A stretch of 46,457 nucleotides of DNA from Candidatus Nomurabacteria bacterium. GTDB taxonomy: Bacteria > Patescibacteriota > Minisyncoccia > Phycocordibacterales > SBAW01. How positions within the stretch are numbered: the stretch's first letter is position 1; the number at the start of each line of letters is the position of its first letter. The stretch lies in NCBI GenBank assembly GCA_943348815.1, contig CALQYT010000004.1:11617-58073 (forward strand), written 5' to 3'. The notes under the pieces were generated by a model, which was not told the origin of the DNA, made no database searches, and saw only the letters and a list, made by a program, of their open reading frames with translations. This document shows positions 846 to 42,301 of this stretch, piece after piece. A program made the position numbers and the translations under genes.

Positions 846-879
846 GTTCGCGGAGTGCTTTTGGGGTACAATGTCTCTT

Positions 880-1629
880 ATGGCCCTTTCGTGGAGTAAT
901 CGGCGTAAGCTTCTTTATACTGCCGTCGTGAGTGTTATCGCACTCATCGTCGTTTATTTTCTCTACACGAGCCTTTTTAACCGCCCACCAACTTGTTTTG
1001 ACGGCGTGCAAAATCAAGACGAACATGGTGTTGATTGCAGCGGCGTATGCTCACTAATTTGCAAAAACGAAACCCGCGCACCCATAGTTTTGTGGAATCG
1101 CGCCTTCCAGGTGGCGCCGGGTGTTTATACCGCGGCAGCCTACGTACAAAACCCCAACATTGGTGATGCTGCACGCCGCGTTTCGTATACCTTCCAACTT
1201 TTTGATGAAAAAAATGTTTTAGTTAAAGAGCGCACGGGCAGCATCGACCTCCCGCCGGTGCAAACCGTGCCGTTTATTGACCCTAATATTAATGTCGGCA
1301 ATCGCATCGTTGCCAAAGCGATCTTCGCCTTTACCCAAGATCCGGTTTGGCAGCGCGCCGACCCACTCCCAACGCTGCGCGTGGGCAACCAATCGCTTGC
1401 CGCAGACGGCTCGCGCCTTTCGGCCACCGTCTCCAATACCTCGATCCAAGATGCAAGTCAGATAGTGGCAACCGCGGTGCTCTTTGACGCACAAGGTGTC
1501 GCGCGCGCCGCGAGCAAAAGTTTAATTCCGCTTATCGCGCGCAAGTCGTCGCAAGACGTTGTGTTTACCTGGAGCGGTGGCGTGCCCAACATAATCCGTG
1601 CCGAAATTACGGTGCTACCCAGCTTCTAA
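880..1629 (+). CDS. CPR-type membrane-anchored hypothetical protein with Cys/Asp motif (TCFDGVQNQDEHGVDCSGVC) and beta-sandwich domains
   Basis: N-terminal TM helix and Cys-rich motif; start moved to ATG 880, 7 nt after TACAAT (867-872). Confidence 0.8.
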   Translation: MALSWSNRRKLLYTAVVSVIALIVVYFLYTSLFNRPPTCFDGVQNQDEHGVDCSGVCSLICKNETRAPIVLWNRAFQVAPGVYTAAAYVQNPNIGDAARRVSYTFQLFDEKNVLVKERTGSIDLPPVQTVPFIDPNINVGNRIVAKAIFAFTQDPVWQRADPLPTLRVGNQSLAADGSRLSATVSNTSIQDASQIVATAVLFDAQGVARAASKSLIPLIARKSSQDVVFTWSGGVPNIIRAEITVLPSF

Positions 1630-2783
1630 TGAGCCCGCTGCGCTTTGGCAAAAAAAGTTCCCTGCCCGCCGGCGGGCGCGGTATAGACTGGATTGCTTTT
1701 TCGGCTGCTCTAGGTCTCTGCATTTTGGGGCTCGTAACCATGAGTTCGTTTCAGTCGCAGGACCCGTTTTTCTTCCGCCAGTGCATCTGGATTTTGCTCG
1801 GCGTCGTGGTATTTTTTGTCGCAAGTAAAATAGACTGGCGCTTTTTGCGTCTTAGTACGGTTGCTGCTGCCGTATATGCGGTCGTGCTGTTGCCACTCAT
1901 TTTTTTGGTAGTAGCAGGCCATGCGACCCAGGGCGCCAAGTCATGGTTTGACTTGGGGCCCTTTGCACTCCAGCCGGTTGAGTTTGTAAAACTCGCGCTC
2001 ATTATTGCACTTGCCAAATATTTTTCTCGCCGACACATCGAGATAGCCAACATCCGGCATATTTTAGTTTCGGGAGCTTACGCGGGGATCGTATTTATTT
2101 TGGTGGCTCTGCAACCAGACTTTGGCTCAGCAATTATCATATTTTTAATCTGGCTCGGCATGGTTTTGCTCTCGGGCATTTCGCGCACGCATTTGTTTGT
2201 AGTGTTGGGGCTTGGCCTTGCAGCATTTGCGGGGCTGTGGCTGTTTGGATTTCACGACTACCAAAAAACGCGCATCCTCACGTTCGTTCATCCGCTTGCC
2301 GACATCCACGGCGCTGGGTACAACGCATATCAGTCGACGGTGGCGGTGGGCTCGGGGCAGTTGCTCGGCAAGGGGATAGGCTACGGCACGCAGAGCAAGT
2401 TGCGTTTTTTGCCCGAGTATCAGACTGACTTTATTTTTGCCGCCTTCGCCGAAGAGTGGGGGTTTATTGGGATCGTATTAGTGTTTGCACTCTACGGCGT
2501 GTTGTTTTGGCGGATACTCGCTGCGGCGTCACGCGGGGCATCTAACTTTGAGACGCTCTTTGCACTCGGTGTTTTGTGTTATTTCGGCGCGCACTTTTTA
2601 TTGCATGTGGGGATCAACGTGGGGATCTTGCCGGTTACGGGCACCACGATACCGTTTATGAGCTACGGCGGCTCACACTTGCTGGCCGAGTTTTTGGCGC
2701 TCGGGATGATTGCCGGAATGCTGCGCTATGCGGGCGCCGCGCGCCAAGGTGCGGGTGTTGAGTGGAGCGGGTACGGGAGTTGA
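1629..2783 (+). CDS. rodA: SEDS family peptidoglycan polymerase RodA (FtsW/RodA/SpoVE)
   Basis: Motifs GAKSWFDLG..QPVEFVK, LQPDFGSA, GSGQLLGKG, LPEYQTDFIF, PVTGTTIPFMSYGGS; ~10 TM segments. Confidence 0.92.
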   Translation: MSPLRFGKKSSLPAGGRGIDWIAFSAALGLCILGLVTMSSFQSQDPFFFRQCIWILLGVVVFFVASKIDWRFLRLSTVAAAVYAVVLLPLIFLVVAGHATQGAKSWFDLGPFALQPVEFVKLALIIALAKYFSRRHIEIANIRHILVSGAYAGIVFILVALQPDFGSAIIIFLIWLGMVLLSGISRTHLFVVLGLGLAAFAGLWLFGFHDYQKTRILTFVHPLADIHGAGYNAYQSTVAVGSGQLLGKGIGYGTQSKLRFLPEYQTDFIFAAFAEEWGFIGIVLVFALYGVLFWRILAAASRGASNFETLFALGVLCYFGAHFLLHVGINVGILPVTGTTIPFMSYGGSHLLAEFLALGMIAGMLRYAGAARQGAGVEWSGYGS

Positions 2784-2804
2784 AAAGGGTTGTATAGTGG
2801 TGGC

Positions 2805-3737
2805 ATGAAGCCTTTAGGCGGTTTTGTCTGGCTCCCGCTTTTAATCCTGGCCGGTCTCATTATTTTAGGCGGCGGAACATATTGGTATACCCATCGCACA
2901 CTGGGATCATCTGGGGAAGGGGTACGAATCAATATTCTCTCCATCAAACCTCAACCGGGGCGCTCACCACTTGTGACTTACGAAATATCAGGGACTCTAC
3001 GCGAGAGCTTGATCAATTTAATCCGCGCTGATGATTTAAAAATCTATTGGTGGGACACCGCATCCGTCGGTGTCCATGCCATTGATCTCACTGGCCAACC
3101 GCGCAAGAGTTCGGAGCCAAGCACAGTGCCTTTTCCTGAAGGCAATTACTTTTTTAAGATCGAACGTTCCGGTGACACAGTTGCCACCAGTTCGGTATTT
3201 CATGTTCCTAGTAGTTCGTGGGGCGCAACCACCGCTGAGGAGCAAAAAGATTGTATATACAATGGGCATACGTACAAGAGCGGTACAGCCACGTATACGC
3301 CAATTTCTGGTTTGCGGGTCATTTGCAAAGATGGGCGATGGGAGAGCACGGCAGGAGGAGCTGATATTACTGCAGATGTTGAGAAGGAGACGGAAGTGAC
3401 TATCGACACGTCGTCTCTCGATTCGAGCTCAAGCAACCCCACACTTTCTGGCTCGGTTTCTCCACAAATAACGGATTTGGAAATAAGTATTTTCTCCTAT
3501 GATCCGAAGACTCATGGGGGTGACGAAGTGTGGGGGAGTGGCAATACTACTGTTGCTATTAAAAATGGAAAGTGGTCGGTGCGAATAGAGGTGCCCGGTG
3601 CCGCGACACCTTGGAGGCTTACGCCTGGCACCTACCAAGTCCTTGTGGATGGACGACCGCGCAATGATCCTTACGCGGGTTTTTATAGCTCCAATTACAA
3701 ACCTCTACGAACTGGCATTCTTACCATAAAGCCATAA
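2805..3737 (+). CDS. Pilin-like (class III signal-like) secreted protein with Ig-like C-terminus
   Basis: N-terminus MKPLGG|FVWLPLLILAGLIILGGGTYWY; beta-rich Ser/Thr-rich body; start 6 nt after TATAGT. Confidence 0.7.
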   Translation: MKPLGGFVWLPLLILAGLIILGGGTYWYTHRTLGSSGEGVRINILSIKPQPGRSPLVTYEISGTLRESLINLIRADDLKIYWWDTASVGVHAIDLTGQPRKSSEPSTVPFPEGNYFFKIERSGDTVATSSVFHVPSSSWGATTAEEQKDCIYNGHTYKSGTATYTPISGLRVICKDGRWESTAGGADITADVEKETEVTIDTSSLDSSSSNPTLSGSVSPQITDLEISIFSYDPKTHGGDEVWGSGNTTVAIKNGKWSVRIEVPGAATPWRLTPGTYQVLVDGRPRNDPYAGFYSSNYKPLRTGILTIKP

Positions 3738-3759
3738 AAATCTATGCTATTGTAGCCGC

Positions 3760-4620
3760 ATGAAGCCTCCACAAGGTTTTGTCTGGCTCCCTGTTTTGTT
3801 GGGTGTTTTGGCCGTGCTTGTGGTTTCTGGTGGGGCGTACTTTCTTACTCATAAATCCAATAGCTCGGGTCCCGGATCCGCTTCGGAGCTTTATTATGAT
3901 CAGCCATGGGCGGCAACTTCTTCAACGCTCGTTGCAAATCCAACCAGCGGTCCGGCGCCGCTTAAAGTTAGGTTTACTACTGACGCAGGGGAAAGATCTT
4001 CTATTGATTTGGGTGATGGAAAAGACAGAGTAAATTACCTTTCTTTTGAAGGAAAAAACTGTACACCCACACTATGTAGAGGTGAGTATACCTACACTGA
4101 GCCAGGAAAATATTACGCACGAGTTACAGATGAGGTTGGCGGGACCATGGCCACGGCAGAAATTGTTGTCACTTCTCCATCTAATACTCCCAAACAATCC
4201 ATTTCTGTCCCCGGCATGAGCAAGTACACCGACACCGACTTTGGCTTTTCTTTTTGGTATCCGAGTACCTGGCAAGTCGAAGTAGATAGTTATGACAGTG
4301 ACCAACTCGACGTTGGTCCAGCGAGCGCGCCGTTTGTAACAATTCGAAAAATACATTCCGTGGTCACATCCTCAGATGTTGTTGGGACAACCATGGGGGG
4401 ACTCCTTATGATTGATGCACATGCACACAAGACAGAATGGGTGTATTACGTTCCATTTGGATCCCGCGGCTTTTTACAAGTCGCCCAACAGGGTTATGAC
4501 CTATCCCAGGGTTATCTTTCCGCAACAATCATGGCCATCGACCCGTCGGTCGCGATACCAGTAAGTGCAACCGAACAAATAAAGATTATTCAGGCCGAAA
4601 AAGATGCGTACGCTCAATAA
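3760..4620 (+). CDS. Pilin-like secreted protein with PKD-like and PsbP-like segments
   Basis: N-terminus MKPPQG|FVWLPVLLGVLAVLVVSGGAYF; PKD signature PTSGPAPLKVRF...DLGDG...YTYTEPGKY; YTDTDFGFSFWYP. Confidence 0.72.
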   Translation: MKPPQGFVWLPVLLGVLAVLVVSGGAYFLTHKSNSSGPGSASELYYDQPWAATSSTLVANPTSGPAPLKVRFTTDAGERSSIDLGDGKDRVNYLSFEGKNCTPTLCRGEYTYTEPGKYYARVTDEVGGTMATAEIVVTSPSNTPKQSISVPGMSKYTDTDFGFSFWYPSTWQVEVDSYDSDQLDVGPASAPFVTIRKIHSVVTSSDVVGTTMGGLLMIDAHAHKTEWVYYVPFGSRGFLQVAQQGYDLSQGYLSATIMAIDPSVAIPVSATEQIKIIQAEKDAYAQ

Positions 4621-5729: not shown

Positions 5730-5767
5730 GGCGGTAGGCGGGTTATATGCTATTGTAACCGACAACA

Positions 5768-8203: not shown

Positions 8204-8277
8204 TTGTAAAGCGTGTGGTGTAGTGCTAACGTTCGCGGTGGAACGATCCCGTTCCGCAACCTAGTGGCCCAAGGAGG
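8204..8277 (+). promoter_or_regulatory. galE promoter, leader hairpin and canonical SD
   Basis: TTGTAA (8204-09) - 17 nt - TAACGT (8227-32) with upstream TG; hairpin ggaacg-atcc-cgttcc; AAGGAGG at 8271-77. Confidence 0.65.
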
Positions 8278-8282
8278 CTCGC

Positions 8283-9251
8283 ATGACTGTGCTCGTCACA
8301 GGCGGCGCGGGCTTCATCGGAGCTCACGTCGTCAAAAAGCTACTCGCCAAAAAAGAAAAAGTGGTGGTGGTCGATGATCTCTCTAGCGGGTGGGCGGGTC
8401 GCATGCCTATCAACATCCCTTTCGAGATAGGCGATATTGCCGATACGGCTTTCTTACGGTCGGTCTTTCGACGGTACTCTATCTCGGCAGTGGTTCATCT
8501 CGCGGGTTCAATCTTGGTCGGAGACTCGATCAAGTATCCGTTGTTGTATCATCGGAACAATGTCGTCGCTTCGCACACGCTACTTACGGTGATGCTTGAG
8601 TTTGGAGTGAGGACGATCGTCTTCTCTTCTTCCGCGGCGGTGTATGGTGACCCAAGCCAGACACCGGTAACCGAAGAGGCCGACTTAAGGCCGGTCAATC
8701 CGTATGGGTGGAACAAGCTCACCACGGAAATGATGCTTCGGGACTATGCCAAGGCCTATGGGTTGCGATACGTGGCTTTGCGGTATTTCAATGCCGCTGG
8801 GCCTGGTTATCGGCGGAGGCCAGCTTCGCATCTTATCCCGCGGGCGGTGCACGCGGTGCTTGGGATCGAGCCATACTTTAGGCTCAATGGTGCGGACTAT
8901 CCAACTAGGGATGGCACCTGTGACCGCGACTACGTCCATGTGGAAGACCTCGCCGACGCACACTATGTGGCGTGGTGGTATCTGCTCAATGGGGGGACTA
9001 GCCTCGCGCTCAATTGCGGAGGAGGTAAACCCTATTCCAACTTGGAGGTGCTCCAAAAAATTAGGAGCATTTCCGGCGTTGACTTTCCGATCGAAATCGG
9101 TCCGCGCCGGCAAGGGGATCCAGCCAGCCTGGTTGCCCATATTGGGTTGATCCGCGAAACCTTAGGTTGGGTACCCAAACTTGGTCTTGAGACTATGATC
9201 GGAAACGAGCTCGAGTTCGCTCGCATGTACCTCAGTAAACCCACCGCTTAG
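8283..9251 (+). CDS. galE: UDP-glucose 4-epimerase
   Basis: VTGGAGFIG, FSSSAAVYG, NPYGWNK, LRYFNAAG, DYPTRDGTCDRDYVHVEDLA, RRQGDPASL. Confidence 0.9.
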   Translation: MTVLVTGGAGFIGAHVVKKLLAKKEKVVVVDDLSSGWAGRMPINIPFEIGDIADTAFLRSVFRRYSISAVVHLAGSILVGDSIKYPLLYHRNNVVASHTLLTVMLEFGVRTIVFSSSAAVYGDPSQTPVTEEADLRPVNPYGWNKLTTEMMLRDYAKAYGLRYVALRYFNAAGPGYRRRPASHLIPRAVHAVLGIEPYFRLNGADYPTRDGTCDRDYVHVEDLADAHYVAWWYLLNGGTSLALNCGGGKPYSNLEVLQKIRSISGVDFPIEIGPRRQGDPASLVAHIGLIRETLGWVPKLGLETMIGNELEFARMYLSKPTA

Positions 9252-9270
9252 ACGCGGTGGGTTTTTTCTT
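9237..9270 (+). terminator. Intrinsic terminator of galE
   Basis: aaacccaccgc-ttagac-gcggtgggttt followed by a T tract. Confidence 0.8.
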
Positions 9271-9290
9271 TGTGTGCTAGGATGTGCAAA

Positions 9291-10037
9291 ATGCTAGTCG
9301 ACGGCAAAAAAGTAGCCGAGGAGGTGCTAAAGGGGTTAGAAAGGGAGCGTAAGCACTTTGGCGCGCTCAAGCTCGGGCTTGTGATGGAGGGTGGCGACGC
9401 GGCAACCGAGTCGTTTGTCAAAATTAAATCGCGGATTGCGGAGCGTCTTAAAATTACAACCGCGCGCTACTCGCCGCAGGAAATGTCGAAGGCAATAAAA
9501 GAGTGCGACGGGATAATCGTGCAGCTGCCGATCGCACACGATGCCGAGTTGTTGGCCAAACTTCCTCCCGGGAAAGATATCGATGGACTTTCTAAAAAAC
9601 CAGTCGTGCGCCCGCCGGTCGCCGAAGCGATCTGCGAGATTTTTGACCGATGTAACATAGCGGCGCGCGGTAAGCATGCGGTGGTGGTCGGCGCGGGGCG
9701 TTTGGTGGGTGCACCGGCGGCCGAACTTTTGCGTGACTTGGGTGCCAAAGTTGAGGTAGTAACCGAGCACGACTCGCTCGAGCCGCTACACTTTGCCGAC
9801 ATTGTGGTGTTGGGTGCGGGCAAGCCCGGGCTCATTGAACCGGACATGTTGCACCGCGGGGTGGTGTTGATTGACGCGGGCACCAGCGAGCAGGGCGGCA
9901 AAGTCAAAGGCGATGCGCGGCCCTCCTGCGCCAATGTAGCCTCGGTCTTTACCCCCGTCCCGGGTGGGGTGGGCCCTATTGCAGTGGCGATGATTTTCAA
10001 AAATTTGTTCGTACTTGCAAGACGAAACAAGAAGTGA
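9291..10037 (+). CDS. folD: Bifunctional methylene-THF dehydrogenase/cyclohydrolase (short CPR form)
   Basis: DGIIVQLP, KDIDGL, VVVGAGRLVGAP, IDAGT, GD, TPVPGGVGPIAVAMIFKN. Confidence 0.9.
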   Translation: MLVDGKKVAEEVLKGLERERKHFGALKLGLVMEGGDAATESFVKIKSRIAERLKITTARYSPQEMSKAIKECDGIIVQLPIAHDAELLAKLPPGKDIDGLSKKPVVRPPVAEAICEIFDRCNIAARGKHAVVVGAGRLVGAPAAELLRDLGAKVEVVTEHDSLEPLHFADIVVLGAGKPGLIEPDMLHRGVVLIDAGTSEQGGKVKGDARPSCANVASVFTPVPGGVGPIAVAMIFKNLFVLARRNKK

Positions 10038-10792: not shown

Positions 10793-11350
10793 TTACTTTT
10801 TCTCGAGCAACTGGTCGGCGAGCGCAATAAGCGCTATTTTTATGTTGTGGTCGATTTCCACACCCGAGCTTATCAATTCGTCGAGCAGGGGAATGAATGC
10901 GACGATCACGCCAGTCACCTTCGTCTTCAAGTGGTTGTAGAGACGCTCAAGGACCCAACCGTTGGGTTCTTGCTCAAGCGCCGCCTTGAAGATGCTGACC
11001 TGGTCAGCGACCGGGATCTTCTGATACGCAGCGAAGAGCCGATTCCACAGGTCGCCGTTATCCGTGAGCACCCGTCCGTTCTGCTCCTTAAACTCGAGGT
11101 CGAAGATTTCGAGGAGAACCAAAGCGTCGATCTTGTCGTCACCGATCTCGTTGAGATAGGGCTCAATTACAGCCCCCTCGATTTCCTCATAGGGGTAATT
11201 GCCTTCAAGCGGCTGGCCGTCTTGATGTAGCTTAAGCCAATCAGCAAAACGCTCGGCAAGTGGTGCGCCTGTGTAAACGCGCACAAACGCCGAAAGCGCT
11301 GCTTCATCTGTGTCGGTGATCGCTCGGGACACGTCGTCGTAGCGGGGCAT
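10793..11350 (-). CDS. Hypothetical acidic alpha-helical protein (stand-alone cassette with strong SD)
   Basis: 185 aa ORF; AAAGGAGG 5 nt before ATG; TTGCCA...TATAAAT upstream; own terminator. Confidence 0.78.
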   Translation of the reverse strand: MPRYDDVSRAITDTDEAALSAFVRVYTGAPLAERFADWLKLHQDGQPLEGNYPYEEIEGAVIEPYLNEIGDDKIDALVLLEIFDLEFKEQNGRVLTDNGDLWNRLFAAYQKIPVADQVSIFKAALEQEPNGWVLERLYNHLKTKVTGVIVAFIPLLDELISSGVEIDHNIKIALIALADQLLEKK

Positions 11351-11451
11351 GATGTCCTCCTTTCCCGCTGGAACTTTCGTGACATTTATATCACGATTTT
11401 TAAAAATGGCAACTGCTGCAAAAAGGGCAAAATTTTGTTATGGTTGAGCGC

Positions 11452-12798
11452 ATGTTTGCCATACGGTATTGGGCGGTGGTTGTTTTGATTGCGGCGGCGG
11501 CCATAGGCTTTTTTGTATATGCCACCACTGGTTCGACAGGCTCACCACAAGCGGGGCAGGGTCGCTTTGACTTTAAACTCGGGCTCGACCTCTCGGGCGG
11601 CACACATCTGGTTTACACGGTGGACTCCAGCAAGGTCGCCAAGGCTGACATCGCCGATGCGCTTACGTCGCTGAGGCAAGTGATAGAGCGCCGCGTCAAC
11701 GCCTTTGGGGTTGGCGAGCCGGTAGTGCAGGTTGAGCAGGGCGGCGCCTTGGGTAATGGCCAGTATCGATTGGTGGTTGAGCTCCCGGGCGTTACCGACA
11801 CACAAGAGGCAATCAAGCGCATTGGTGAGACGCCGGTATTGGAATTTAAATTAGTAAAAAAAGGTCAAGAACAAAATCTCACCGACACCACGGGCAATGC
11901 TATTGCAACTTCGTTTGAAGACACCGGATTGACCGGAAAATATTTGACGCGCGCGACGCTCCAATTTGGCAACGGTTCGACCCAGAGTTTACAGCAACCG
12001 GTGGTGCGCGTTGACTTTAATAGTCAGGGTGCGCAACTCTTTGGCGACATCACGTCTAAAAACACGGGCCGACTTTTGGGCATCTTCCTCGACAATCGTT
12101 TGATTTCCGCGCCGGTGATCCAAGAAAAAATTACTGATGGCACGGCTATAATTTCGGGTAATTTTACCGCCGATGTGGCGCGCGAGATGGTGCGCAACCT
12201 TAACCTCGGCGCCTTGCCTCTCCCGATCGCGCTCGAAAACACGCAAACCATCGGCGCAACGCTCGGCCAAGATGCGCTGCACGCGGGAGTCTATGCGGGC
12301 ATTATTGGTTTTATCCTCCTTTCTATATTTATGATCCTCTGGTACCGCTTGCCGGGTGTTGTGGCGGTAGTCTCGCTCTTAATCTACGTCGTGTTGATGC
12401 TCGCACTCTTTAAACTCATCCCCGTGGTGCTTACGGCGGCCGGTATCGCAGGCTTTATCCTTTCGGTCGGTTTGGCGGTAGATGCCAACGTGCTGATTGC
12501 CGAGCGTATAAAAGAGGAGTTAGCAGCGGGCAACAAAGCGCAGCATGCAATCCGCGAGGGTTTTGCCCGCGCGTGGTTGGCGATCCGCGACTCCAACATT
12601 GCGCACATTATCGCGGCAGTAATCTTGTTTTGGTTTTCAACTTCGCTCATCAAAGGTTTTGCCTTGGTGTTTGGACTTGGAGTATTAATTTCGATGCTCT
12701 CGGCTATCACCATATCGCGCACGTTCTTGCTGGCGCTCGGGCTTAACACGGAGTCGAAGGTTGGACGCTTCTTAATGCGCTCAGGACTCAACAAATAG
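11452..12798 (+). CDS. secD: Protein translocase subunit SecD
   Basis: KLGLDLSGGTHLVY, RRVNAFGVGEP, LNLGALP, IGATLG, GLAVDANVLIAERIKEE, IKGFA. Confidence 0.95.
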   Translation: MFAIRYWAVVVLIAAAAIGFFVYATTGSTGSPQAGQGRFDFKLGLDLSGGTHLVYTVDSSKVAKADIADALTSLRQVIERRVNAFGVGEPVVQVEQGGALGNGQYRLVVELPGVTDTQEAIKRIGETPVLEFKLVKKGQEQNLTDTTGNAIATSFEDTGLTGKYLTRATLQFGNGSTQSLQQPVVRVDFNSQGAQLFGDITSKNTGRLLGIFLDNRLISAPVIQEKITDGTAIISGNFTADVAREMVRNLNLGALPLPIALENTQTIGATLGQDALHAGVYAGIIGFILLSIFMILWYRLPGVVAVVSLLIYVVLMLALFKLIPVVLTAAGIAGFILSVGLAVDANVLIAERIKEELAAGNKAQHAIREGFARAWLAIRDSNIAHIIAAVILFWFSTSLIKGFALVFGLGVLISMLSAITISRTFLLALGLNTESKVGRFLMRSGLNK

Positions 12799-15219: not shown

Positions 15220-16683
<1,464 letters not shown>

Positions 16684-18135: not shown

Positions 18136-18152
18136 GTTGCTATAGTGATCGC

Positions 18153-18563: not shown

Positions 18564-18621
18564 GGTTCCTCTTTTTTGGAATTGGTATACGCTATTGTCT
18601 CAGGAATGATATACTTAGCTT

Positions 18622-20666: not shown

Positions 20667-20682
20667 GTCGCATGATAGCGGG

Positions 20683-21987: not shown

Positions 21988-21992
21988 CTCCT

Positions 21993-23449: not shown

Positions 23450-23550
23450 AGTGAGTCATCCCCTGCAGCCATTTAAATCTTATCGTATGTAGCAAAATTT
23501 TTTGTACACAGAATGTGCAATACAACTAAAAAAATGCTAGGGTGTGCTCC

Positions 23551-25564: not shown

Positions 25565-25593
25565 GGTTCATACGTCTTGTTATACTTACAGGG

Positions 25594-29451: not shown

Positions 29452-30539
29452 AAAAAATTCTAATTTTCTCACTTGCCTATTATCCGCGCGTCGGCGGAGC
29501 CGAGGTGGCTATCAAAGAGATCACCGATCGCATTGGTGATATCGAATTTCATATAGTCACCCTTCGATTTGACTCAGGGCAAGCGAAGGAAGAAAAGATG
29601 GGCAACGTGATACTGCATCGCGTAGGAAAGGGGGGCTCGTACTTGGATAAAATTTTATTTGTGCCGCGCGCCACATTTTTGGCGCGACGTTTGCACGCTC
29701 AAGAAAAATTTGACGGTGCGTGGGCGATGATGAGCTACATGCTCTTTCCTATTGTTTTGGCAAAATTAAAAATTCCGTATGCGCTCACCTTGCAGGAAGG
29801 GGACACCGAGCAGTACATGTTTGGCCGGCTCAGGATTCTTCCTTTTTTGTTTTTACTCAAACGCGGCTTTCGTGAAGCAAAAGTAGTACAAGCGATTTCC
29901 ACCTATCTGGGCGACTGGGCACATAAAATGGGTTTTCCGGGTCCACTAGAAATCATTCCGAACGGCGTTGATATACAAAAATTTTCTGGCGAAAAAGTTT
30001 CGCATGAACAGCCGACCGTTATTACTTCGTCTCGTTTGGTGCATAAAAATGCAATCGATGATTTGCTTCGTGCAATTGCATTAATTCCTGACACTAACCT
30101 CATAGTTGCCGGAAGTGGGCCCGATGAAAATAAACTAAAAAAACTTGCCCAAGAACTTGGCATAGTCGCGCGGATTAAATGGCTTGGTCATGTCGACCAT
30201 GCGCAACTCCCGGCACTTTTGCACGCATCAGATGTGTTTGTGAGGGCCTCGCGCTCCGAAGGTATGGGAAACTCCTTTGTTGAGGCGTTTGCGGCTGGGG
30301 TACCTGTGGTCGCGACGCAGGAAGGGGGGCTTAAAGACTTTATTACGCCCGAGGTAGCTTGGCCGGTGGAGAAGGATCGACCCGACCAAATAGCGGCCCA
30401 AATTAAGGCTATTTTGGGTAACCCGGGGCGTGCGGCGGTAGTTATAGAAAATGCCAGAAAACTGGCCTTTGAGAAATACGATTGGACCCTAATCGCGCGC
30501 GCGATGGAAGAGTGCGTGTTTTCTCGACTTTTTTCATGA
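29448..30539 (+). CDS. Glycosyltransferase family 4
   Basis: YYPRVGGAE, IIPNGVD, SRSEGMGNSFVEAFAAGVPVV. Confidence 0.9.
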   Translation: MKKILIFSLAYYPRVGGAEVAIKEITDRIGDIEFHIVTLRFDSGQAKEEKMGNVILHRVGKGGSYLDKILFVPRATFLARRLHAQEKFDGAWAMMSYMLFPIVLAKLKIPYALTLQEGDTEQYMFGRLRILPFLFLLKRGFREAKVVQAISTYLGDWAHKMGFPGPLEIIPNGVDIQKFSGEKVSHEQPTVITSSRLVHKNAIDDLLRAIALIPDTNLIVAGSGPDENKLKKLAQELGIVARIKWLGHVDHAQLPALLHASDVFVRASRSEGMGNSFVEAFAAGVPVVATQEGGLKDFITPEVAWPVEKDRPDQIAAQIKAILGNPGRAAVVIENARKLAFEKYDWTLIARAMEECVFSRLFS

Positions 30540-31528
30540 TCAACATACTTTTAGCAACCGGTCTTTACCCGCCGGAGAGCGGCGGGCCCGCGACCTATGC
30601 AAAGCTGTTGGAAGAGCGCATGCCAGCATTTGGGTTTGAGGTGACGGTATTGCCATTCCGTGCAGTGCGTCATCTGCCTAAAATTTTTAGACACGCGGCC
30701 TATTTTTTAAAATGTTTAGGAAAGGCGCGTGGAGTCAACATAATTCTTGCGCAAGACACGGTATCGGTTGGGTTTCCGGCAGCGCTTGCTGCAAAACTAA
30801 CCGGCAAAAAATTTGTACTGCGCGTGCCGGGCGACTATGTGTGGGAGCAGGCGCGGCAGCGGTATGGTGTGGTGGATGAATTAGACGAGTTTCAAACCAA
30901 GTCTTACGGACTACGGGTAGGCCTACTGCGCGCCATCCAAAAATTTGTTGCACGCAGTGCCAATGTGGTAATAGTACCAAGCGGCTATATGCAAAAAATA
31001 GTCGGCGGCTGGGGTGTTGTGCCCATGCTAGTTTATAACGGCATTGATATTCCGGTACCATACGAGTTGCCCAAAGAGCGGCCAGAGGGTTTTTTTATTG
31101 TTTCGTTTGGTCGCCAAGTGCCGTGGAAGGGTTTTGACGCGCTGCGGCGCGTAGTGGCACGAGAGCCGCGGTGGCAGCTTAAAATATTTGATAACCTTCC
31201 GCGCGTACAAGCGATGGGTTGGGTAAAAGTGGCGAGTGTGTATGTTAACAATTCGACCTACGAAGGTCTCTCGCATCAACTGCTCGAGGCGATGGCGCTT
31301 GGCACACCGATTGTGGCGACGAGCGTTGGCGGCAATCCTGAGTTGGTGCAAGATGGCGGTTTACTTATCCCCGCTAAAGACGATGAGGCGCTGTATCAAG
31401 CACTTAAAAAAATTGAGGATGATCAAGCGGGTACACAGGAGCGTGCACGGCGTGCAGAAGAGCGGGTGCAGGAGTTTGCGATACCCACAACACTGCAAAA
31501 ACTTGCGGAACTTCTAAAAACTATATGA
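30536..31528 (+). CDS. Glycosyltransferase family 4
   Basis: YPPESGGPATY, GRQVPWKG, STYEGLSHQLLEAMALGTPIV; ATGA overlap start. Confidence 0.88.
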   Translation: MINILLATGLYPPESGGPATYAKLLEERMPAFGFEVTVLPFRAVRHLPKIFRHAAYFLKCLGKARGVNIILAQDTVSVGFPAALAAKLTGKKFVLRVPGDYVWEQARQRYGVVDELDEFQTKSYGLRVGLLRAIQKFVARSANVVIVPSGYMQKIVGGWGVVPMLVYNGIDIPVPYELPKERPEGFFIVSFGRQVPWKGFDALRRVVAREPRWQLKIFDNLPRVQAMGWVKVASVYVNNSTYEGLSHQLLEAMALGTPIVATSVGGNPELVQDGGLLIPAKDDEALYQALKKIEDDQAGTQERARRAEERVQEFAIPTTLQKLAELLKTI

Positions 31529-32406
31529 AAGTCTTACTAATTACAGGCGACCGGCGCTTTGGGCCGGGTAATGAACGTTACGAGCTGCAGCGCAACGCGG
31601 TGGAGGAATTGGCAGTGGTGTTTTGGGGGCGGGGGAGTTTGTGGCCAAAAATTCCGCCAGGGCAGTTTGACGTGGTGAGCGCGCAGGACCCCTTTTGGCG
31701 TGGGTTGTTTGGGTGGCGGGTTGCTAAAAAGCTCGGAGCGAAATTTAACGTACAAGTACATACCGACCTGTCTGCACAAAGTTTGGTGCGGCATGTACTT
31801 GGTCAGATTGTTTTGCGTCATGCCGACTCGGTGCGGGTGGTGTCAGAAAAAATAAAACAGCAAGTTGCGCGTATTGGGGTGCGCGCAAAAATATCGGTGC
31901 TGCCGGTCTTTGTCGACCTAGAGAAGTTTCGCACTATTTCACGCGCATTACAGCTACCTAAAACAATACTGTGGATTGGCCGCTTTGAACCGGAAAAAGA
32001 TCCCCTGTATGCATTTGAAGTTTTACGACAGGTGCCGGGTGCGCGTTTAGTAATGCTCGGGGCGGGGAGTTTGGCAGGAGAGCTAAAACAAAAGGCAGAA
32101 GGGCTATCGGTAAGTTTCCCCGGCTGGCAGGACCTTAAGCCCTATTTGGCACAAGCTGATATGGTGCTCTGTACCTCTAGGCACGAGAGTTGGGGACAGA
32201 GTATAGTAGAAGCGCTCGCGGCCGGCGTGCCCGTGGTTGCGCCCGATGTGGGTATAGCGCGCGAGGCGGGTGCACTAATTGCGCCCAGAGCAGACTTGGC
32301 TGAGAAAGTAAAAGAAGTGCTGCAATCGGGAGCACGGGGCGAATTAAAACTTAACGTCTTGGCAGCTCCACAGTGGGTAGCGGCGTGGAAGCAATCACTT
32401 ACCTAA
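31525..32406 (+). CDS. Glycosyltransferase family 4 (compact)
   Basis: GRFEPEK, SRHESWGQSIVEALAAGVPVVAPDVG. Confidence 0.86.
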   Translation: MKVLLITGDRRFGPGNERYELQRNAVEELAVVFWGRGSLWPKIPPGQFDVVSAQDPFWRGLFGWRVAKKLGAKFNVQVHTDLSAQSLVRHVLGQIVLRHADSVRVVSEKIKQQVARIGVRAKISVLPVFVDLEKFRTISRALQLPKTILWIGRFEPEKDPLYAFEVLRQVPGARLVMLGAGSLAGELKQKAEGLSVSFPGWQDLKPYLAQADMVLCTSRHESWGQSIVEALAAGVPVVAPDVGIAREAGALIAPRADLAEKVKEVLQSGARGELKLNVLAAPQWVAAWKQSLT

Positions 32407-32408
32407 GT

Positions 32409-33299
32409 ATGAAAAAACCTCTCATTGGATTTATCGGCCAGGGATTTATCGGCAAAAGTTATGCTGATGATTTTGAGCGCCGCGGCTACACGGTAGTGCG
32501 TTATTCGTTGGAGGAGCGCTATCGCGCTAATAAAAATAAGATTAAAGAATGCGACATTGTTTTTATTGCCGTACCAACTCCGACAACGCCGCGAGGGTTT
32601 GATTACTCGATTGTGCGCGAGGGTTTGGGGTTGGTGGGCCCGGCGAAAACCGCGGTTATCAAATCAACCATTTTGCCCGGCACTACGCAAAAACTACAGA
32701 AGCAGTTTCCAAAACTCTACGTCATGCATAGTCCGGAGTTTTTGGTACTCAAGCAGGCGGCCGAGGATGCGGCGCGCCCGCTGCGCAATATTGTGGGTGT
32801 TTCTAAAAACACCAAAGCGTTTCGTGACCGGGCGCACATTATTTTGCGCACCCTCCCCAAAGCGCCGTTTGAGGTGGTGTGCGGCGTACGCGAGGCAGAG
32901 CTGGTCAAATATGCAGGAAACTTCTTTTTGTACCTGCGGGTACTCTTTGCCAACCTCATTTTTGACTTAGCTAAAGCCTCAGGGGCCGACTACGAAGTGG
33001 TGCGTGCTGCGGTGGCGGCCGACCCGCGCATCGGTGCCTCGCACTTACAGGTAGTGCACGATAGCGGGCACAAAGGGGCCAAACTGGGCCGTGGTGCGGG
33101 CGGAGTGTGCTTTATCAAAGACGTCGCGGCACTCGCCGAGTTATATGGCAAATCGGTTAAGGATCCGTGGGGCGACAAGTTTTTGGCAGCCGCGATAGAA
33201 AAAAATCTCCATTTGCTGGTGACCTCTAACAAAGATCTCGATTTGGTTGAGGGCGTGCACGGCAAAGCTGCCGTTGCCCGGCACCGCAAACGTCGTTAG
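32409..33299 (+). CDS. UDP-glucose/GDP-mannose dehydrogenase family protein lacking the C-terminal domain
   Basis: GQGFIG, FIAVPTP, IKSTILPGT, HSPEFL, AELVKY, DPRIG, GAGGVCFIKD; 296 aa. Confidence 0.85.
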   Translation: MKKPLIGFIGQGFIGKSYADDFERRGYTVVRYSLEERYRANKNKIKECDIVFIAVPTPTTPRGFDYSIVREGLGLVGPAKTAVIKSTILPGTTQKLQKQFPKLYVMHSPEFLVLKQAAEDAARPLRNIVGVSKNTKAFRDRAHIILRTLPKAPFEVVCGVREAELVKYAGNFFLYLRVLFANLIFDLAKASGADYEVVRAAVAADPRIGASHLQVVHDSGHKGAKLGRGAGGVCFIKDVAALAELYGKSVKDPWGDKFLAAAIEKNLHLLVTSNKDLDLVEGVHGKAAVARHRKRR

Positions 33300-33302
33300 T
33301 TT

Positions 33303-34190
33303 ATGAAGTTACTTATCACTACCCAGGCGGTAGATAAAAACGACTCTCATCTTGGTTTTTTTGTGCGATGGTTAGAAGAGTTTGCAAAACACTGTGAGGA
33401 GATAACGGTTATTTGTTTGCGCGAAGGAGAACATTTTTTACCGGCACACGTAAAGGTCTATCCACTCAAATCAAAAAATAAGATAGGCCGCGCCTTTGAG
33501 TTACTACGATATATCGTAGTATTCCGACACCGCTATACTCACGTGCTCGTGCATATGAATCCGGAATATTTGGTTGCGGCGGTATGGTTGTGGCATTTGC
33601 TTGGGAAAAAGATTGGGCTTTGGTATACACATAAAAGTGTTGATCTTAAATTGCGCATAGCAGAAAAATTAGTAGATATAATTTTTACCGCCTCGCGTGA
33701 GAGCTTCCGACTGCCGAGCAAAAAAGTACATATCATGGGACATGGGATTGATACTGATTTTTTTAATCCTGACCCGAGTATTGTGCGCGGCGAACACTGG
33801 CTTTCGGCCGGGCGCCTAAGCAAGAGTAAGCGCCACGACTTGGCTATCCGCGCGGCTGCCGAGGCGGGGAAGGAATTACGGATAGGAGGTGAGGGGCCGG
33901 AGCTCAAAAATTTACAGGAGCTAGCGCAAGAGCTTGGCGCGCGAGTCACCTTTTTGGGAGGGCTCAGTCACGCGCAGGTGCGTGACGAGTTTCGCCGTGC
34001 GGCGCTCTTTTTGCATATGAGCGAGACGGGGAGTTTGGATAAGATGATTTTGGAGGCTGTTGCTTGCGGCTGTCCGGTACGCACGCGCGACCCAGCGCTC
34101 AAGTTTTTAGAGACGGCGAGCCCCGAATATGTGCGCGAGCATCACTCTCTCCAAAAACTTATTCCTGCTATGCTCAAGGAGTTAGCATGA
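33303..34190 (+). CDS. Glycosyltransferase family 4
   Basis: GHGIDT, GRLSKSKR, SETGSLDKMILEAVACGCPV. Confidence 0.85.
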   Translation: MKLLITTQAVDKNDSHLGFFVRWLEEFAKHCEEITVICLREGEHFLPAHVKVYPLKSKNKIGRAFELLRYIVVFRHRYTHVLVHMNPEYLVAAVWLWHLLGKKIGLWYTHKSVDLKLRIAEKLVDIIFTASRESFRLPSKKVHIMGHGIDTDFFNPDPSIVRGEHWLSAGRLSKSKRHDLAIRAAAEAGKELRIGGEGPELKNLQELAQELGARVTFLGGLSHAQVRDEFRRAALFLHMSETGSLDKMILEAVACGCPVRTRDPALKFLETASPEYVREHHSLQKLIPAMLKELA

Positions 34191-37443: not shown

Positions 37444-37445
37444 GG

Positions 37446-38534
37446 CTAGTCTTGTACGGCTCCCTCGGTGTAGCGTGAGTCAGTGCGGCACCAGTCAATA
37501 AACCGGGCGAGACCTTGTTGCAGACTTACCTGCGGAGCAAATTTAACGTCGGAGCGGGCTTTAGTGATGTCAGGACAGCGACGCTCGGGCTCCCCAGCGG
37601 GATAATTGGCCGGGTAGGGGATAAGCGTATACGTGGCGCCGCTTCCTTCGATTTTTACAAACAGTTCGGCGAGGTCTTTCATTGATATTTCGTTGTCTTC
37701 ATTGCCGATGTTGTACACCTCGCCAGGTTTGCCGCTCAGAAGCACTTTAAGGAAGCCGGTTGCGGCGTCGGTAATATAGCAAAACGTCCGGGTCTGTCGG
37801 CCGTGACCGTGGACCGGTATTGGTTGTTTGTTGAGTACTTTGTACGCAAACATAGGTAATACGCGACGGTCGGCGTGCCCCATGCCCGGGCCAAACACGT
37901 TGAAGGGGCGCACAGTTTTTGTCGGAATACCGTATTGTTGGTGATAAATACTGACGATGGTTTCGGCAAGACGTTTTGATTCGTCGTAGCAGGCGCGCGG
38001 TCCGACTGAAGAGACATAGCCGTGGTAGGTCTCGGGTGTTGGGACGGCCTTCGGGTCAGGATCGCCGTATATTTCGCTTGAACTGAAGAAAAAGAATCCT
38101 TCGAGATTTTTATTTTTTCGCGCGAGTTCGAGAAGATTTTTTACACCCGTGACCGCGCTTTCTATCGTCTCAAGCGGGTATTTTTTGTAATACACGGGTG
38201 AGGCGAGCCCTGCAGCGTGAATGATGTAGTGAATGTCCTCTCGCACGGGGAGCGGGTACGATACATCGCCCCACACTTCGAGCACGTCGTTGCGTCCTTT
38301 AAAGTTAAAATCCGGATGAGGCTGTCCGGTAATGAAGTTGTCTACCGAAATAATACGGCAGGGTTTTTTAAGAGTGGTGTCGTTTAAGTAACACAGAGCC
38401 CCTACCAAGTATTTGCCCAAGAACCCAGAACCGCCACTAATAAGAACGGTCTTCCCCTCAAGTTTGTGGGCTTCCTCCGAACTTAGGTTTTTTCCTATAG
38501 TCGCGATATCTTCCCAAACGATGTTTCCAGACAT
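37446..38534 (-). CDS. UDP-glucuronate decarboxylase-like SDR
   Basis: SGGSGFLG, HAAGLASPVYY, SSSEIYGDP, GPRACYDESKR, RPFNVFGP, QTRTFCY, RRCPDI. Confidence 0.88.
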   Translation of the reverse strand: MSGNIVWEDIATIGKNLSSEEAHKLEGKTVLISGGSGFLGKYLVGALCYLNDTTLKKPCRIISVDNFITGQPHPDFNFKGRNDVLEVWGDVSYPLPVREDIHYIIHAAGLASPVYYKKYPLETIESAVTGVKNLLELARKNKNLEGFFFFSSSEIYGDPDPKAVPTPETYHGYVSSVGPRACYDESKRLAETIVSIYHQQYGIPTKTVRPFNVFGPGMGHADRRVLPMFAYKVLNKQPIPVHGHGRQTRTFCYITDAATGFLKVLLSGKPGEVYNIGNEDNEISMKDLAELFVKIEGSGATYTLIPYPANYPAGEPERRCPDITKARSDVKFAPQVSLQQGLARFIDWCRTDSRYTEGAVQD

Positions 38535-38592
38535 AGTTCAACACTTTAGCATGGGCTAAAAAAGATGACCAGGACTTTTGAGGCTCTCGTTT

Positions 38593-39771: not shown

Positions 39772-39854
39772 GTGATTATTTGATGGTAAGGGCGATTACC
39801 CAATTACTATACTACAGGCAGGCTTTTTGTTTTTGAAAACGGTATAGTAAGGGC

Positions 39855-40568
39855 GTGACCAAAAGCAGGCTAGAAAACGTGCTCGAGCGGATGCGGCTAT
39901 ATACGGATTGGTACAAAGTTACCCTGCCACTTAACCGCTTGCTCGATTACTGCAATATTAATCCGCGCGTGCATCTGCACAATGGGATGCAGTTTGTGGT
40001 GCGGATTTTTTCTGACGATCTCAATATTATTGCCGAGGTGGTTGGGCGCGACTCCTATGGAATTGAAGACTTAGCTCTCAGGGACGACGCGCTCGTTGTT
40101 GATGTCGGCGCCAACGTCGGCGTTTTTAGTGCGTGGATAAAACATCTCCACCCTAATGCCCACTTGGTGGCCTACGAGCCGCACCCTGCCAATTTACTGC
40201 TCCTGCAAGAAAACGCACCCTTTGCCACTATTCATGCCGAGGCAGTCGTAGGCACTGAGGGCGAGGTGCATATCGAGGCCGAGGGACACACCTCCGCACT
40301 TAAGTTGGCTAAAGTAGGGGTCGCGGTACGGGCAATAACACTCGAGCAGGCGTTGGCGCCATTGCTCAAAGTCGATTTACTCAAGGTGGATATCGAAGGC
40401 TCCGAGTACGACGTGTTTATGCACACTCCCCCGAGTGCGATGCAAAAGGTGCAGCAGGCGGTTGTCGAAGTACATCACGACGATTGGCGCGAGTGGTTTG
40501 AAAATTATTTTAAAACCTGCGGTTTTGCGGTGCATTGGAGTGAGGATTTATTGGTCGCCAAACGGTAA
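39855..40568 (+). CDS. FkbM family methyltransferase
   Basis: VDVGANVG, AYEPHP, LLKVDIEGSE, VEVH. Confidence 0.88.
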   Translation: MTKSRLENVLERMRLYTDWYKVTLPLNRLLDYCNINPRVHLHNGMQFVVRIFSDDLNIIAEVVGRDSYGIEDLALRDDALVVDVGANVGVFSAWIKHLHPNAHLVAYEPHPANLLLLQENAPFATIHAEAVVGTEGEVHIEAEGHTSALKLAKVGVAVRAITLEQALAPLLKVDLLKVDIEGSEYDVFMHTPPSAMQKVQQAVVEVHHDDWREWFENYFKTCGFAVHWSEDLLVAKR

Positions 40569-40591
40569 TGTTTTTGTGTTAGAGTGCTCGC

Positions 40592-42301
40592 ATGTGTGCC
40601 ATTGCCGGTGTTACGGCTCCGGATAAAGGGTTAGTCGAGCGGATGAATGCGCTCATGGCTCATCGTGGGCCCGACGATACGGGCGTTTTTTTCGACCACC
40701 AGGTGGCGCTTGGACACAACCGGCTTTCGATCATCGACCTTACGCCGGGCGGACATCAGCCCATGGCGGCGGGCGAGTTACAAATTACCTTCAACGGCGA
40801 GATCTATAACTACCGCGAGTTGCGCGAGGGTTTAAAAAAAGCAGGCGAACAGTTTGTGAGCGAAAGCGATACCGAAGTTATTGTGCGCGGCTATGCGCGC
40901 GAGGGCGTAGCATTTTTTAACAAACTACGCGGGATGTGGGCATTTGCGATTTATGATCCCAAAGCGGGGAAGTTAGTGCTGTCTCGTGACGCGTTTGGTA
41001 TTAAGCCACTTTACTATTATCAAAAAGGTAAGCAGTTTGCATTTGCCTCTGAGTTGCGGGGCTTGCGACCAGTACTTGAGCTCTTTGGTCATACTGACAA
41101 TGTACTCGCGCACCATTTATATTTTTTGTTTGGCTACATACCCGCACCGCATTCGCCGTTTGTAGAGGTTAAAAAAGTTCTCCCCGGCGAGGTGTTGATC
41201 TATGATCTGGCGACGCAGACTCTTGCACACAGCAAATTGGTGCCCGAAGTCGCTGACACGCCGCGTACGCTTGATGAAGCATTGGGAGACAGTGTACGTG
41301 CGCACTTTGTGGCCGATGTGCCGGTTTGCCTCTTTTATTCAGGTGGCATCGATTCCACCTTGTTGCTGGCAAAGGCTCGTGAGTTGGGATTTAACCCCGA
41401 GCCGTTTTTCTTGCATATCCCCAACCGACTCGACAACGAGTATGCGGTTGCCGCAGCCAAAGAGCTTGGGGTTAAGCTCACAAGTTTTGACTTTAGTCCT
41501 AAGCAAGCGCTTGAACGTTTTTTGTCGCTCCGAGAATCATTGGATGAGCCGTTCGCAGATACGTCGTATATTCCGACGGAATATCTGTCAGAGCAGGTAG
41601 CCCGAACGCACAAGGTGGTGCTCTCGGGCGAAGGGGGTGATGAGTTTTTTGGCGGCTATCACCGGCACAATCATTTGCTTGGTCTCCAAAAAGGAATGCG
41701 ATTGGTGCCCGAAGCGCTAGTTGCCAGGTTGCCCGCACGTTTGCGCCGTGCCGCAGAATCTAAGATCAATCGTGATCCGTATGCAGCCTATTTGGAATTT
41801 GTACGCGTCGATGAGGGTCTTGTCTCGCGCACTGAGGCTTTGGAGTTTTTGCACGAGCGGGTAGCGGCGCGCGACGAACTTGGGCTCGCCTTTGATCAGG
41901 AAGTTTATTTGCCGGATGATTTGTTGTTTAAAATCGATCGCGCCGGCATGCGGCATGGGCTTGAGGGTCGTGTGCCGTTTTTGGATACGCAGTTTTTTGC
42001 CGCAGCGCGCCAACATAGTGCGCGCGAACGGCACGGCGGCTCGCCAAGCGGCAAAGGCATGCTCAAAGATTTGTTGCGCAACTATTTGCCCGAGCAATTG
42101 GTTGAGCGCCCCAAACAAGGTTTTAGTATCTCGCTTGCGGTGCTCAAAGATGTACCGCAGGAAGTGAAACAAGAAGCGCTTGCTTACGCGCAGCAACATG
42201 CAGAGCTCATTCCACTAGATCCGGCTCAGGCATTACAGCATCCACAGAGTGCGTACGCTCTATTGATTTGGACGGCGTGGCACAAAAACTTTTTTAAGTA
42301 A
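40592..42301 (+). CDS. asnB: Asparagine synthase-like glutamine-dependent amidotransferase (glycan amidation)
   Basis: MCAIAG, HRGPD, HNRLSIIDL, FNGEIYN, SDTEV, SGGIDS, LSGEGGDEFFGGY, EGRVPFLD, RPKQGF. Confidence 0.92.
   Translation: MCAIAGVTAPDKGLVERMNALMAHRGPDDTGVFFDHQVALGHNRLSIIDLTPGGHQPMAAGELQITFNGEIYNYRELREGLKKAGEQFVSESDTEVIVRGYAREGVAFFNKLRGMWAFAIYDPKAGKLVLSRDAFGIKPLYYYQKGKQFAFASELRGLRPVLELFGHTDNVLAHHLYFLFGYIPAPHSPFVEVKKVLPGEVLIYDLATQTLAHSKLVPEVADTPRTLDEALGDSVRAHFVADVPVCLFYSGGIDSTLLLAKARELGFNPEPFFLHIPNRLDNEYAVAAAKELGVKLTSFDFSPKQALERFLSLRESLDEPFADTSYIPTEYLSEQVARTHKVVLSGEGGDEFFGGYHRHNHLLGLQKGMRLVPEALVARLPARLRRAAESKINRDPYAAYLEFVRVDEGLVSRTEALEFLHERVAARDELGLAFDQEVYLPDDLLFKIDRAGMRHGLEGRVPFLDTQFFAAARQHSARERHGGSPSGKGMLKDLLRNYLPEQLVERPKQGFSISLAVLKDVPQEVKQEALAYAQQHAELIPLDPAQALQHPQSAYALLIWTAWHKNFFK

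Follow-up and report, generated by a model that had tools for sequence, protein, structure and literature searches.

Among the bacterial gene-start types distinguished by GeneMarkS-2, the one closest to the arrangement described here is group C, in which a Pribnow box lies 6-8 nucleotides (nt) from the starts of first-in-operon genes. Lomsadze et al. (2018, PMC6028130) assign 1028 of 4769 bacteria to this group, mostly Actinobacteria and Deinococcus-Thermus such as Mycobacterium, Streptomyces, Corynebacterium and Deinococcus, and predict a leaderless share of 25-50% for the group and, in M. tuberculosis, of 40% of operons. A second point of reference is a Parcubacteria subgroup that lacks both the anti-Shine-Dalgarno (anti-SD) sequence and the ribosomal protein uL1 (Tsurumaki et al. 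2022, RNA 28:1041, PMC9297842). Here, we analyze a -10-like hexamer, TAnnnT, which sits directly in front of many start codons in a 46,457-nt stretch of DNA (the window, G000:C4:11617-58073) and in the remainder of the same genome, G000. This genome comprises 818,771 bp in 17 contigs with 51% G+C and is 96.7% complete; the window carries one 16S rRNA gene and two tRNA genes. Of 48 loci for a relative of SecD, those nearest in sequence (66-80% identical) stem mostly from Candidatus (Ca.) Adlerbacteria, Kaiserbacteria, Nomurabacteria or Paceibacterota, and on this basis the source organism is a Parcubacterium of the Ca. Adlerbacteria type.

Just as in group C, the box is found at 6-8 nt and before a large share of the units, here about 49% of the genes that are not coupled to an upstream gene, and expectation maximization (EM) on 235 coupled genes shows that the motif does not precede operon-internal genes. 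The remaining genes of group C organisms use Shine-Dalgarno (SD) sequences and the anti-SD is kept (PMC6028130), whereas the 16S rRNA of G000 has no anti-SD, its coupled genes are not enriched in SD motifs and only about 50 atypical genes bear SD-like boxes. It also differs from group B, the Bacteroidetes type, whose non-SD motifs precede internal genes too (PMC6028130), because the box is present here before non-coupled genes and not before coupled ones. With the subgroup of Tsurumaki et al. the organism shares a 16S rRNA without CCUCCU, a uL1 gene that was not found and the affiliation with Parcubacteria. That study reports the loss and not the mode of translation start; the word "leaderless" does not occur in its text (PMC9297842), nor does "Parcubacteria" in that of the GeneMarkS-2 paper (PMC6028130). 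A literature search that did not extend to supplements yielded no relevant published account of leaderless genes in Parcubacteria, Patescibacteria, the candidate phyla radiation (CPR) or Saccharibacteria, and the only CPR transcription-start set found cited is that for Nanosynbacter lyticus. The gene layout is of a known kind and not yet in print for Parcubacteria. Termination-reinitiation at overlapping stop and start codons (ATGA, TAATG) is a general phenomenon in bacteria and archaea, and in SD-using bacteria the coupling junctions usually have an SD inside the upstream gene. Stop and start codons also overlap or abut on one strand in G000, but the junctions are devoid of SD. Finally, the about 50 small genes rich in G+C at third codon positions (GC3), which bear their own SD-type signal and are scattered among native genes, resemble phage "morons" and the atypical class of GeneMarkS-2, except that the host ribosome is without anti-SD, so that the signal has no known reader.

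We consider it probable that the native genes start by a leaderless layout with the -10 box at the start codon, combined with reinitiation and without SD pairing. Most native transcription units would be driven by -35-poor, often extended -10 promoters (TGnTAnAnT), whose hexamer ends 6 nt, or in fewer cases 7-8 nt, ahead of the start codon, an ATG and only rarely a GTG. RNA polymerase would then begin at the initial base of this codon or 1-2 nt upstream of it, giving leaderless mRNAs that are presumably loaded directly on ribosomes via their 5'-terminal AUG in an initiation of the 70S type. The downstream genes of a transcript would be read by termination-reinitiation at overlapping or closely abutting stop and start codons, and SD:anti-SD pairing would have no part for native genes because the 16S rRNA tail has lost CCUCC.

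The box stands out even without gene calls. When both strands are counted, TGNTANNNT is followed by ATG after gaps of 6, 7, 8 and 9 nt (between the end of the hexamer and the start codon) in 70, 44, 24 and 22 cases, while the other gaps from 0 to 30 nt give 4-22 and typically about 11. The degenerate TANNNT occurs 322, 320 and 284 times at gaps 6, 7 and 8 as compared with about 150-270 at other gaps. A home-made caller using a dicodon score and greedy selection yielded 862 genes genome-wide, 235 of them tightly coupled to the upstream gene and 627 not. TANNNT at gaps 6-8 precedes 229 of the 862 starts when the longest open reading frame (ORF) is taken throughout, and 44-88 in eight control gap windows. 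The preliminary description of the window had called the architecture pervasive and suggested a genome-wide motif search, and EM on the 627 non-coupled genes indeed recovered TGnTAnAnT (6.6 bits; mixing fraction, lambda, 0.49; posterior >0.9 in 173 genes). The EM-weighted gaps of 5, 6, 7, 8 and 9 nt account for 18, 139, 68, 42 and 39 sites, respectively, with the mode at 6. The same EM drifted to A-rich motifs of 3-4.8 bits when run at control gaps or on the 235 coupled genes, before which no -10 box was found. Among overlapping genes, 11 of 113 have TANNNT, as against 20 at the control gap.

The nature of the start codon matters as well. Sites with at least 6 bits at gaps 5-9 precede 157 of 629 ATG and 18 of 106 GTG longest-ORF starts and none of the 127 TTG starts (control gaps 0-3%), and another 44 genes with a longest-ORF start at GTG or TTG carry a boxed ATG at most 90 nt downstream. 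Note that GTG starts give no spike in the gene-call-free count; support for them appears with longest-ORF starts. Altogether, an estimated 219-306 of the 862 genes are boxed, i.e., about a quarter to a third. "Pervasive" is overstated and amounts to this share of the genes; a further 195-235 genes are coupled and 286 are in neither class.

In the window, the box had been described at 13 starts, and all 13 strings of hexamer, gap and start are present where they had been placed. Scored with a 9-nt -10 matrix that was learned by EM on the whole genome and applied to the window sites with a cut-off of at least 6 bits, 12 of them reach 6.0-10.9 bits at gaps of 6-8 nt and hold as -10 boxes, while the murD site, at -1.3 bits, does not. 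These sites and a newly found one before a murC-like gene are as follows:
867..882, plus strand: TACAAT-7-ATG880, hypothetical protein, no Pfam match; 8.3 bits.
2793..2807, plus strand: TATAGT-6-ATG2805; 9.0 bits; one relative has TGCTATAGT-6-ATG.
3745..3762, plus strand: TGcTATTGT-6-ATG3760; 8.5 bits; TATAGT-6-ATG kept in two relatives.
9275..9293, plus strand: TGcTAGGAT-7-ATG9291 (folD); 6.8 bits; terminator hairpin 9237-9264 directly 5'.
11436..11454, plus strand: TGtTATGGT-7-ATG11452 (secD); 7.3 bits.
18138..18155, plus strand: TGcTATAGT-6-ATG18153 (NUDIX); 10.5 bits; the T-tract of terminator 18110-18131 runs into the box.
18607..18624, plus strand: TGaTATACT-6-GTG18622 (LAGLIDADG-like); 10.9 bits.
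20671..20685, plus strand: CATGAT-6-GTG20683 (murD), the weak case; -1.3 bits; a hairpin precedes.
21977..21995, plus strand: TGTTACAGT-7-ATG21993 (murC-like); 8.6 bits; box inside the 3' end of murD.
23535..23553, plus strand: TGcTAGGGT-7-ATG23551 (rsmI-type TP_methylase); 6.0 bits.
25578..25596, plus strand: TGtTATACT-7-ATG25594 (TrwB/TraG-like coupling protein); 10.9 bits.
38532..38551, minus strand: TGcTAAAGT-8-ATG38534 (epimerase); 9.0 bits.
39843..39857, plus strand: TATAGT-6-GTG39855 (FkbM methyltransferase); 8.9 bits.
40577..40594, plus strand: TGtTAGAGT-6-ATG40592 (asparagine synthase, GATase_7/GATase_6 plus Asn_synthase); 8.5 bits.

Besides ATG21993, the earlier account had missed the weaker TAAGCT-6-ATG19988 (4.6 bits). 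Its statement that none of the 13 starts has an SD stands: a GGAG, GAGG, AGGA or AAGG core at SD spacing was found in 0 of 13, bar the AGGA within the TAGGAT box of folD. Given a random rate of 0.00176 per position for sites of at least 6 bits, about 1.3 would be expected for the 48 genes called in the window and 14 were observed. GTG13506 is probably a false member of the 14, since an upstream coupled ATG is used in relatives; the gene at 13461 always lies a few nt after a TAA stop in relatives and has no SD there. At five of the 13 sites the longest-ORF start is located 9-21 nt upstream of the boxed start. The proposed start codons fit the Pfam domains, which begin at residue 4 in FolD (THF_DHG_CYH) and in the RsmI-type methylase, at residue 8 in the MurC-like ligase and at residue 10 in MurD (MurD-like_N). 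Glutamine amidotransferases of the asparagine-synthase class carry their catalytic N-terminal residue, a cysteine, right after the initiator methionine. Read from ATG40592, the asparagine synthase begins with Met-Cys, which would fix this ATG as the start. Three further observations concern individual starts. The gene for the TrwB/TraG-like type IV coupling protein (25594-27471, plus strand) has one of the strongest boxed starts. The LAGLIDADG-like ORF (18622-19317) shares 44 nt with the 5' part of tRNA-Leu(CAG) (19274-19360). At 5740-5772, TGCTATTGT is situated 11 nt before ATG5768, which would mean a short leader, and a divergent TTG5768 gene begins at the same base.

Comparison with relatives supports the idea that the position of the box is conserved while the flanking sequence drifts. 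Coding DNA of genus relatives is only 66-76% identical. Before secD, TANNNT is present at gaps 5-9 in 36 of 37 distinct species records, the exception being TATAAT at gap 10; TG is found in 31 and an SD core in none, while control gaps 15-19 contain TANNNT in 11 of 38. By eye, TGnTAnnnT lies 6-8 nt before the secD ATG in 18 of 19 distinct genus and order relatives, and the remaining upstream sequence differs. Orthologues of the ORF starting at 880 have TACAAT or TATGAT 6 nt before ATG in five of five congeners. For folD, TANNNT lies 6 nt ahead of the start in three relatives; in a fourth the arrangement is TATAAA-7-ATG. In all 26 genus and order genomes the box pattern outnumbers a reversed-pattern control, which is a crude one, e.g., 114 vs 34 in G000, 62 vs 9 in G017 and, at the weakest, 76 vs 58 in G024.

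Several properties support the box as an extended -10 element of the sigma70 type rather than a ribosome-binding motif acting at the mRNA level, as far as this can be read from sequence. The first, second and sixth positions of the hexamer are nearly invariant in the EM matrix (T 0.90, A 0.95, T 0.91), with TG at -15/-14. The most frequent hexamer is TATACT (53 of 330), and 108 of the 330 are preceded by TG. The -35 region of boxed genes hardly rises above random, and a scan for two-hexamer promoters gave no excess (15 found vs 17.1 +/- 4.3 in shuffles), which agrees with -10-only promoters. Among divergent neighbours 11-60 nt apart, 47 of 70 have a box; these genes are out of reach of read-through because there is no co-directional gene upstream. 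The box often follows directly 3' of a terminator, as at 9237-9264 and 18110-18131, and is often fused to the terminator's T-tract. Sigma70 promoters have a canonical distance of 6 from hexamer to +1, and with a modal gap of 6 the +1 would therefore coincide with the A or G that opens the start codon. Leaderless translation depends on an AUG or GUG start; the unboxed TTG starts fit either this dependence or a purine at +1.

A different type of promoter is apparent near the rRNA gene. Within the first 20 kb, TTGACA-16-TATACT at 14983-15010 (plus strand, 11 of 12 matches, about 210 nt upstream of the 16S gene) is the sole near-perfect promoter with two hexamers. It probably drives the rRNA gene and is of another type than the -10-only promoters of the protein genes.

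The claim that the 16S rRNA has no anti-SD proved correct, both here and in the order relatives that were read, since CCUCC is absent from the tail:
15220..16683, plus strand: 16S rRNA gene, 3' tail GGAACAAUUCAAAU (16670-16683) where GGAUCACCUCCUUA is expected; no anti-SD.
The gene aligns to the full Rfam model, the tail reading GGAACAAUUCAAAU where the consensus is GGAUCACCUCCUUu, and the same tail type occurs in all genus and order relatives for which the 16S 3' region was found as well as in seven further members of the class. No substitute for the missing sequence emerged. An insertion that displaced the true anti-SD was considered, given a CCTCC about 50 nt after the modelled 16S end (GATCGTCCCTCC), and rejected, since this stretch is part of a hairpin of variable sequence in congeners and CCTCC is absent from it in all of them; only one 16S gene was found in the genome; and the sole exact copy of the canonical 16S 3' end, the 13-mer GATCACCTCCTTA at C1:133506-133518, is antisense inside a well-scoring coding gene. 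With about 0.02 chance matches expected, this copy is probably a coincidence. Likewise, TGAAT, TTGAA, GAATT, AATTG, TTTGA, ATTTG, GAATTG and TTGAAT, tried as a compensatory new SD, are neither enriched nor positioned before starts. As to ribosomal proteins and factors, uL1 (PF00687) was not found in G000, whereas the control search matched in 14 of 14 genomes; G000 does encode IF3 and an S1 protein of four domains, and the only match for bS21 is below the curated cut-off. The 16S gene stands alone: Rfam finds no 23S or 5S rRNA in the window, which covers 30 kb downstream, and the next RNA gene is a tRNA-Ile (17553-17626) on the opposite strand. A hairpin and a conserved GAATCGGCGATC 3' of the 16S gene are common to the relatives.

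The seven stop/start overlaps described before were all confirmed, two as TAATG (1629 and 42301) and five as ATGA in a single run:
28606..34190, plus strand: run of coupled genes with ATGA overlaps at 28606, 29448, 30536, 31525 and 34187.
Genome-wide, 113 of 601 same-strand neighbour pairs overlap, by 4 nt in 40 cases and by 1 nt in 15, and 122 are separated by 0-10 nt. Before the 195 coupled genes without a box, no enrichment of SD motifs was found: GGAGG occurs 1 time (about 2 expected), AGGAG 4 (2.5), GGAG 9 (10), GAGG 13 (11) and AGGA 13 (8).

A number of findings weigh against leaderless initiation with reinitiation as the general mode for native genes. About a third of the genes (286 of 862) are neither boxed, coupled nor SD-led. 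Some 70 of these have a strong -10 box 5-49 nt upstream (92 matches vs 22 expected), and their leaders would therefore be short. Canonical SD-like boxes stand at the correct distance before about 50 genes despite the 16S tail, which is unexpected if SD pairing has disappeared altogether. The machinery for leadered initiation is not obviously missing, judging from S1 and IF3. The class labelled LL (331 genes) is inflated, as a boxed start was chosen wherever one exists, and we rely on the range of 219-306 instead. The gene caller also made errors, including GTG13506 and the plus-strand ORF at 34064-34834. For the latter, which encodes 256 amino acids, the caller preferred an ORF of 131 amino acids on the minus strand (34208-34603); the plus-strand gene is more likely real because its ATG34187 overlaps the preceding stop as ATGA. 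The proposal that the core genome is translated by leaderless initiation plus reinitiation thus keeps the motif, its spacing and the SD-free coupling, and has to be qualified on the leaderless state itself, which the sequence makes likely, on the SD genes and on the unclassed third.

Of the competing explanations, the one that fares best accepts the boxes as real promoters of transcripts that are not strictly leaderless: +1 would lie 1-3 nt upstream, especially at gaps 7-9, or extra promoters further upstream would be used, giving very short leaders or A-rich, SD-independent binding of the 30S subunit aided by S1. About half of the EM-weighted sites have gaps of 7, 8 or 9 nt, S1 and IF3 are at hand and the -10 boxes of the genes in the remaining class spread over gaps 5-49, all of which speak for this explanation, while the modal gap coincides with the canonical distance to +1 and the complete lack of boxed TTG starts is a better fit to a purine +1 on the codon itself. 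We regard it as unlikely. It is much less probable that TAnnnT is no promoter at all and instead a non-SD ribosome-binding or enhancer element within longer transcripts, similar to the group B motifs. A substitute signal could be expected with a 16S rRNA that lacks the anti-SD, and the box is found in 49 of 89 same-strand genes with spacers of 11-30 nt. On the other hand, the motif equals the extended -10 consensus including TG, is often fused to the T-tract of the preceding terminator and is absent before the 235 coupled genes, whereas group B motifs precede internal genes (PMC6028130, available part); furthermore, no upstream motif complementary to the new 16S tail is enriched. That chance, AT-rich intergenic sequence or the choice of alternative starts created the pattern has a negligible probability, since the starts picked downstream of the longest-ORF start at five of 13 sites and the equally free choice in class LL are outweighed by a spike that needs no gene calls and is confined to gaps 6-9, by longest-ORF starts that alone lie far above control gaps, and by conservation in relatives.

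The SD-led genes deserve a closer look. Of the 310 unboxed genes whose upstream spacing exceeds 10 nt, 27 have AGGAG (4.5 expected) and 20 have GGAGG (3.6 expected). GGAG, often within a full AAGGAGG, peaks at gaps 6-9 with counts of 19, 10, 9 and 6 vs about 1 elsewhere. The 50 genes concerned have a higher median GC3 (0.651 vs 0.585), a lower median dicodon score (0.306 vs 0.430) and a shorter length than the boxed genes (Mann-Whitney, p ~1e-7 for GC, GC3 and score, 0.0016 for length). A Pfam family is lacking for 20 of the 38 that were scanned, and the others have mostly accessory functions; core genes such as gyrB and trmD are few, and their SD match may be coincidental. Three strong cases were searched in five near-complete congeners and none of the three was found, whereas two boxed control genes were detected in five and two of these genomes. 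Two canonical cases reside in the window and had been left out of the preliminary description:
8271..9251, plus strand: AAGGAGG-5-ATG8283, epimerase, SD-led atypical gene; no DNA match over the gene body in 25 relatives.
10793..11362, minus strand: AAGGAGG-5-ATG11350, SD-led atypical gene without Pfam match; found in 0 of 5 congeners.
The DNA search matched neither of these two genes in relatives. The one at ATG11350 is an insertion relative to G008, where the syntenic gap measures 147 nt compared with 838 nt here. Some SD-led genes have a -10 box 30-49 nt upstream (8 matches vs 1.8 expected) and would therefore be leadered. The simplest reading is that the SD-led genes are recent acquisitions with a foreign start signal.

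How far the layout extends beyond this clade was assessed in a draw of 301 genomes from the phylum; as these are related and not independent samples, no statistical conclusion is drawn. One of the 301, G179, is flagged as unpublished and is not relied on for any claim. The 16S 3' region was found in 179 of them, with CCTCC in place in 160. Of the 19 tails without it, nine truly have no anti-SD, namely G000, G201 and seven genomes of the same class as G000, and ten are single-base variants (TCTCC, CTTCC, CCGCC, CCTCT, ACTCC and CCCCT) distributed over several CPR families (G254, G312, G056, G172, G239, G132, G256, G209, G060 and G224). These variants suggest relaxed constraint on the 16S tail well beyond the clade that lost the anti-SD. 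The ratio of box to reversed pattern, again a crude measure, ranges from about 1 to 16 by family and does not track the state of the tail: it is 1.3-3.9 in anti-SD-less members of the class, 1.6-2.4 in the three members with CCTCC, and it reaches 4-8 in anti-SD-positive genomes elsewhere. The equally crude ratio for AGGAG-N5-9-ATG (132/100 in G000) does not separate tail states either. Gap profiles over 400 kb show clear gap-6 spikes in G207, which has a GCCTCC tail (12 vs about 2), and in G254 with a TCTCC tail (28 vs about 4). G192 (C1:1-400000, 33% G+C, canonical anti-SD) gave no spike before ATG, either of the -10 box or of AGGAG. The layout is not confined to anti-SD-less lineages because G207 and G254 exhibit the spike, and the idea that it is a signature specific to anti-SD loss was not borne out.

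These results can be joined in a reading that we put forward tentatively, as possible rather than probable: a clade at the level of a class would have given up docking by SD, its native genes would be started only via loading at a 5'-AUG and reinitiation, and the SD genes would be foreign. Within CPR, leaderless starts seem to be older and more widespread than anti-SD loss, because genomes with GCCTCC and TCTCC tails have the spike and several families have single-base variants; leaderless initiation may have preceded this loss, weakened selection on the 16S tail and so allowed its decay. If this is true, the about 50 GC3-rich, SD-bearing and apparently strain-specific genes would be incoming genes, either with a signal that the ribosome cannot read or with another reading route. 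The SD-led genes provide a natural test of SD function without anti-SD. Gene prediction that relies on an SD will put starts in the wrong place in genomes of this kind. That part of the Parcubacteria has lost the anti-SD is already published, and the promoter-at-start-codon layout, which covers about half of the transcription units, together with SD-free coupling is a candidate and testable answer to the question of how translation starts in these organisms.

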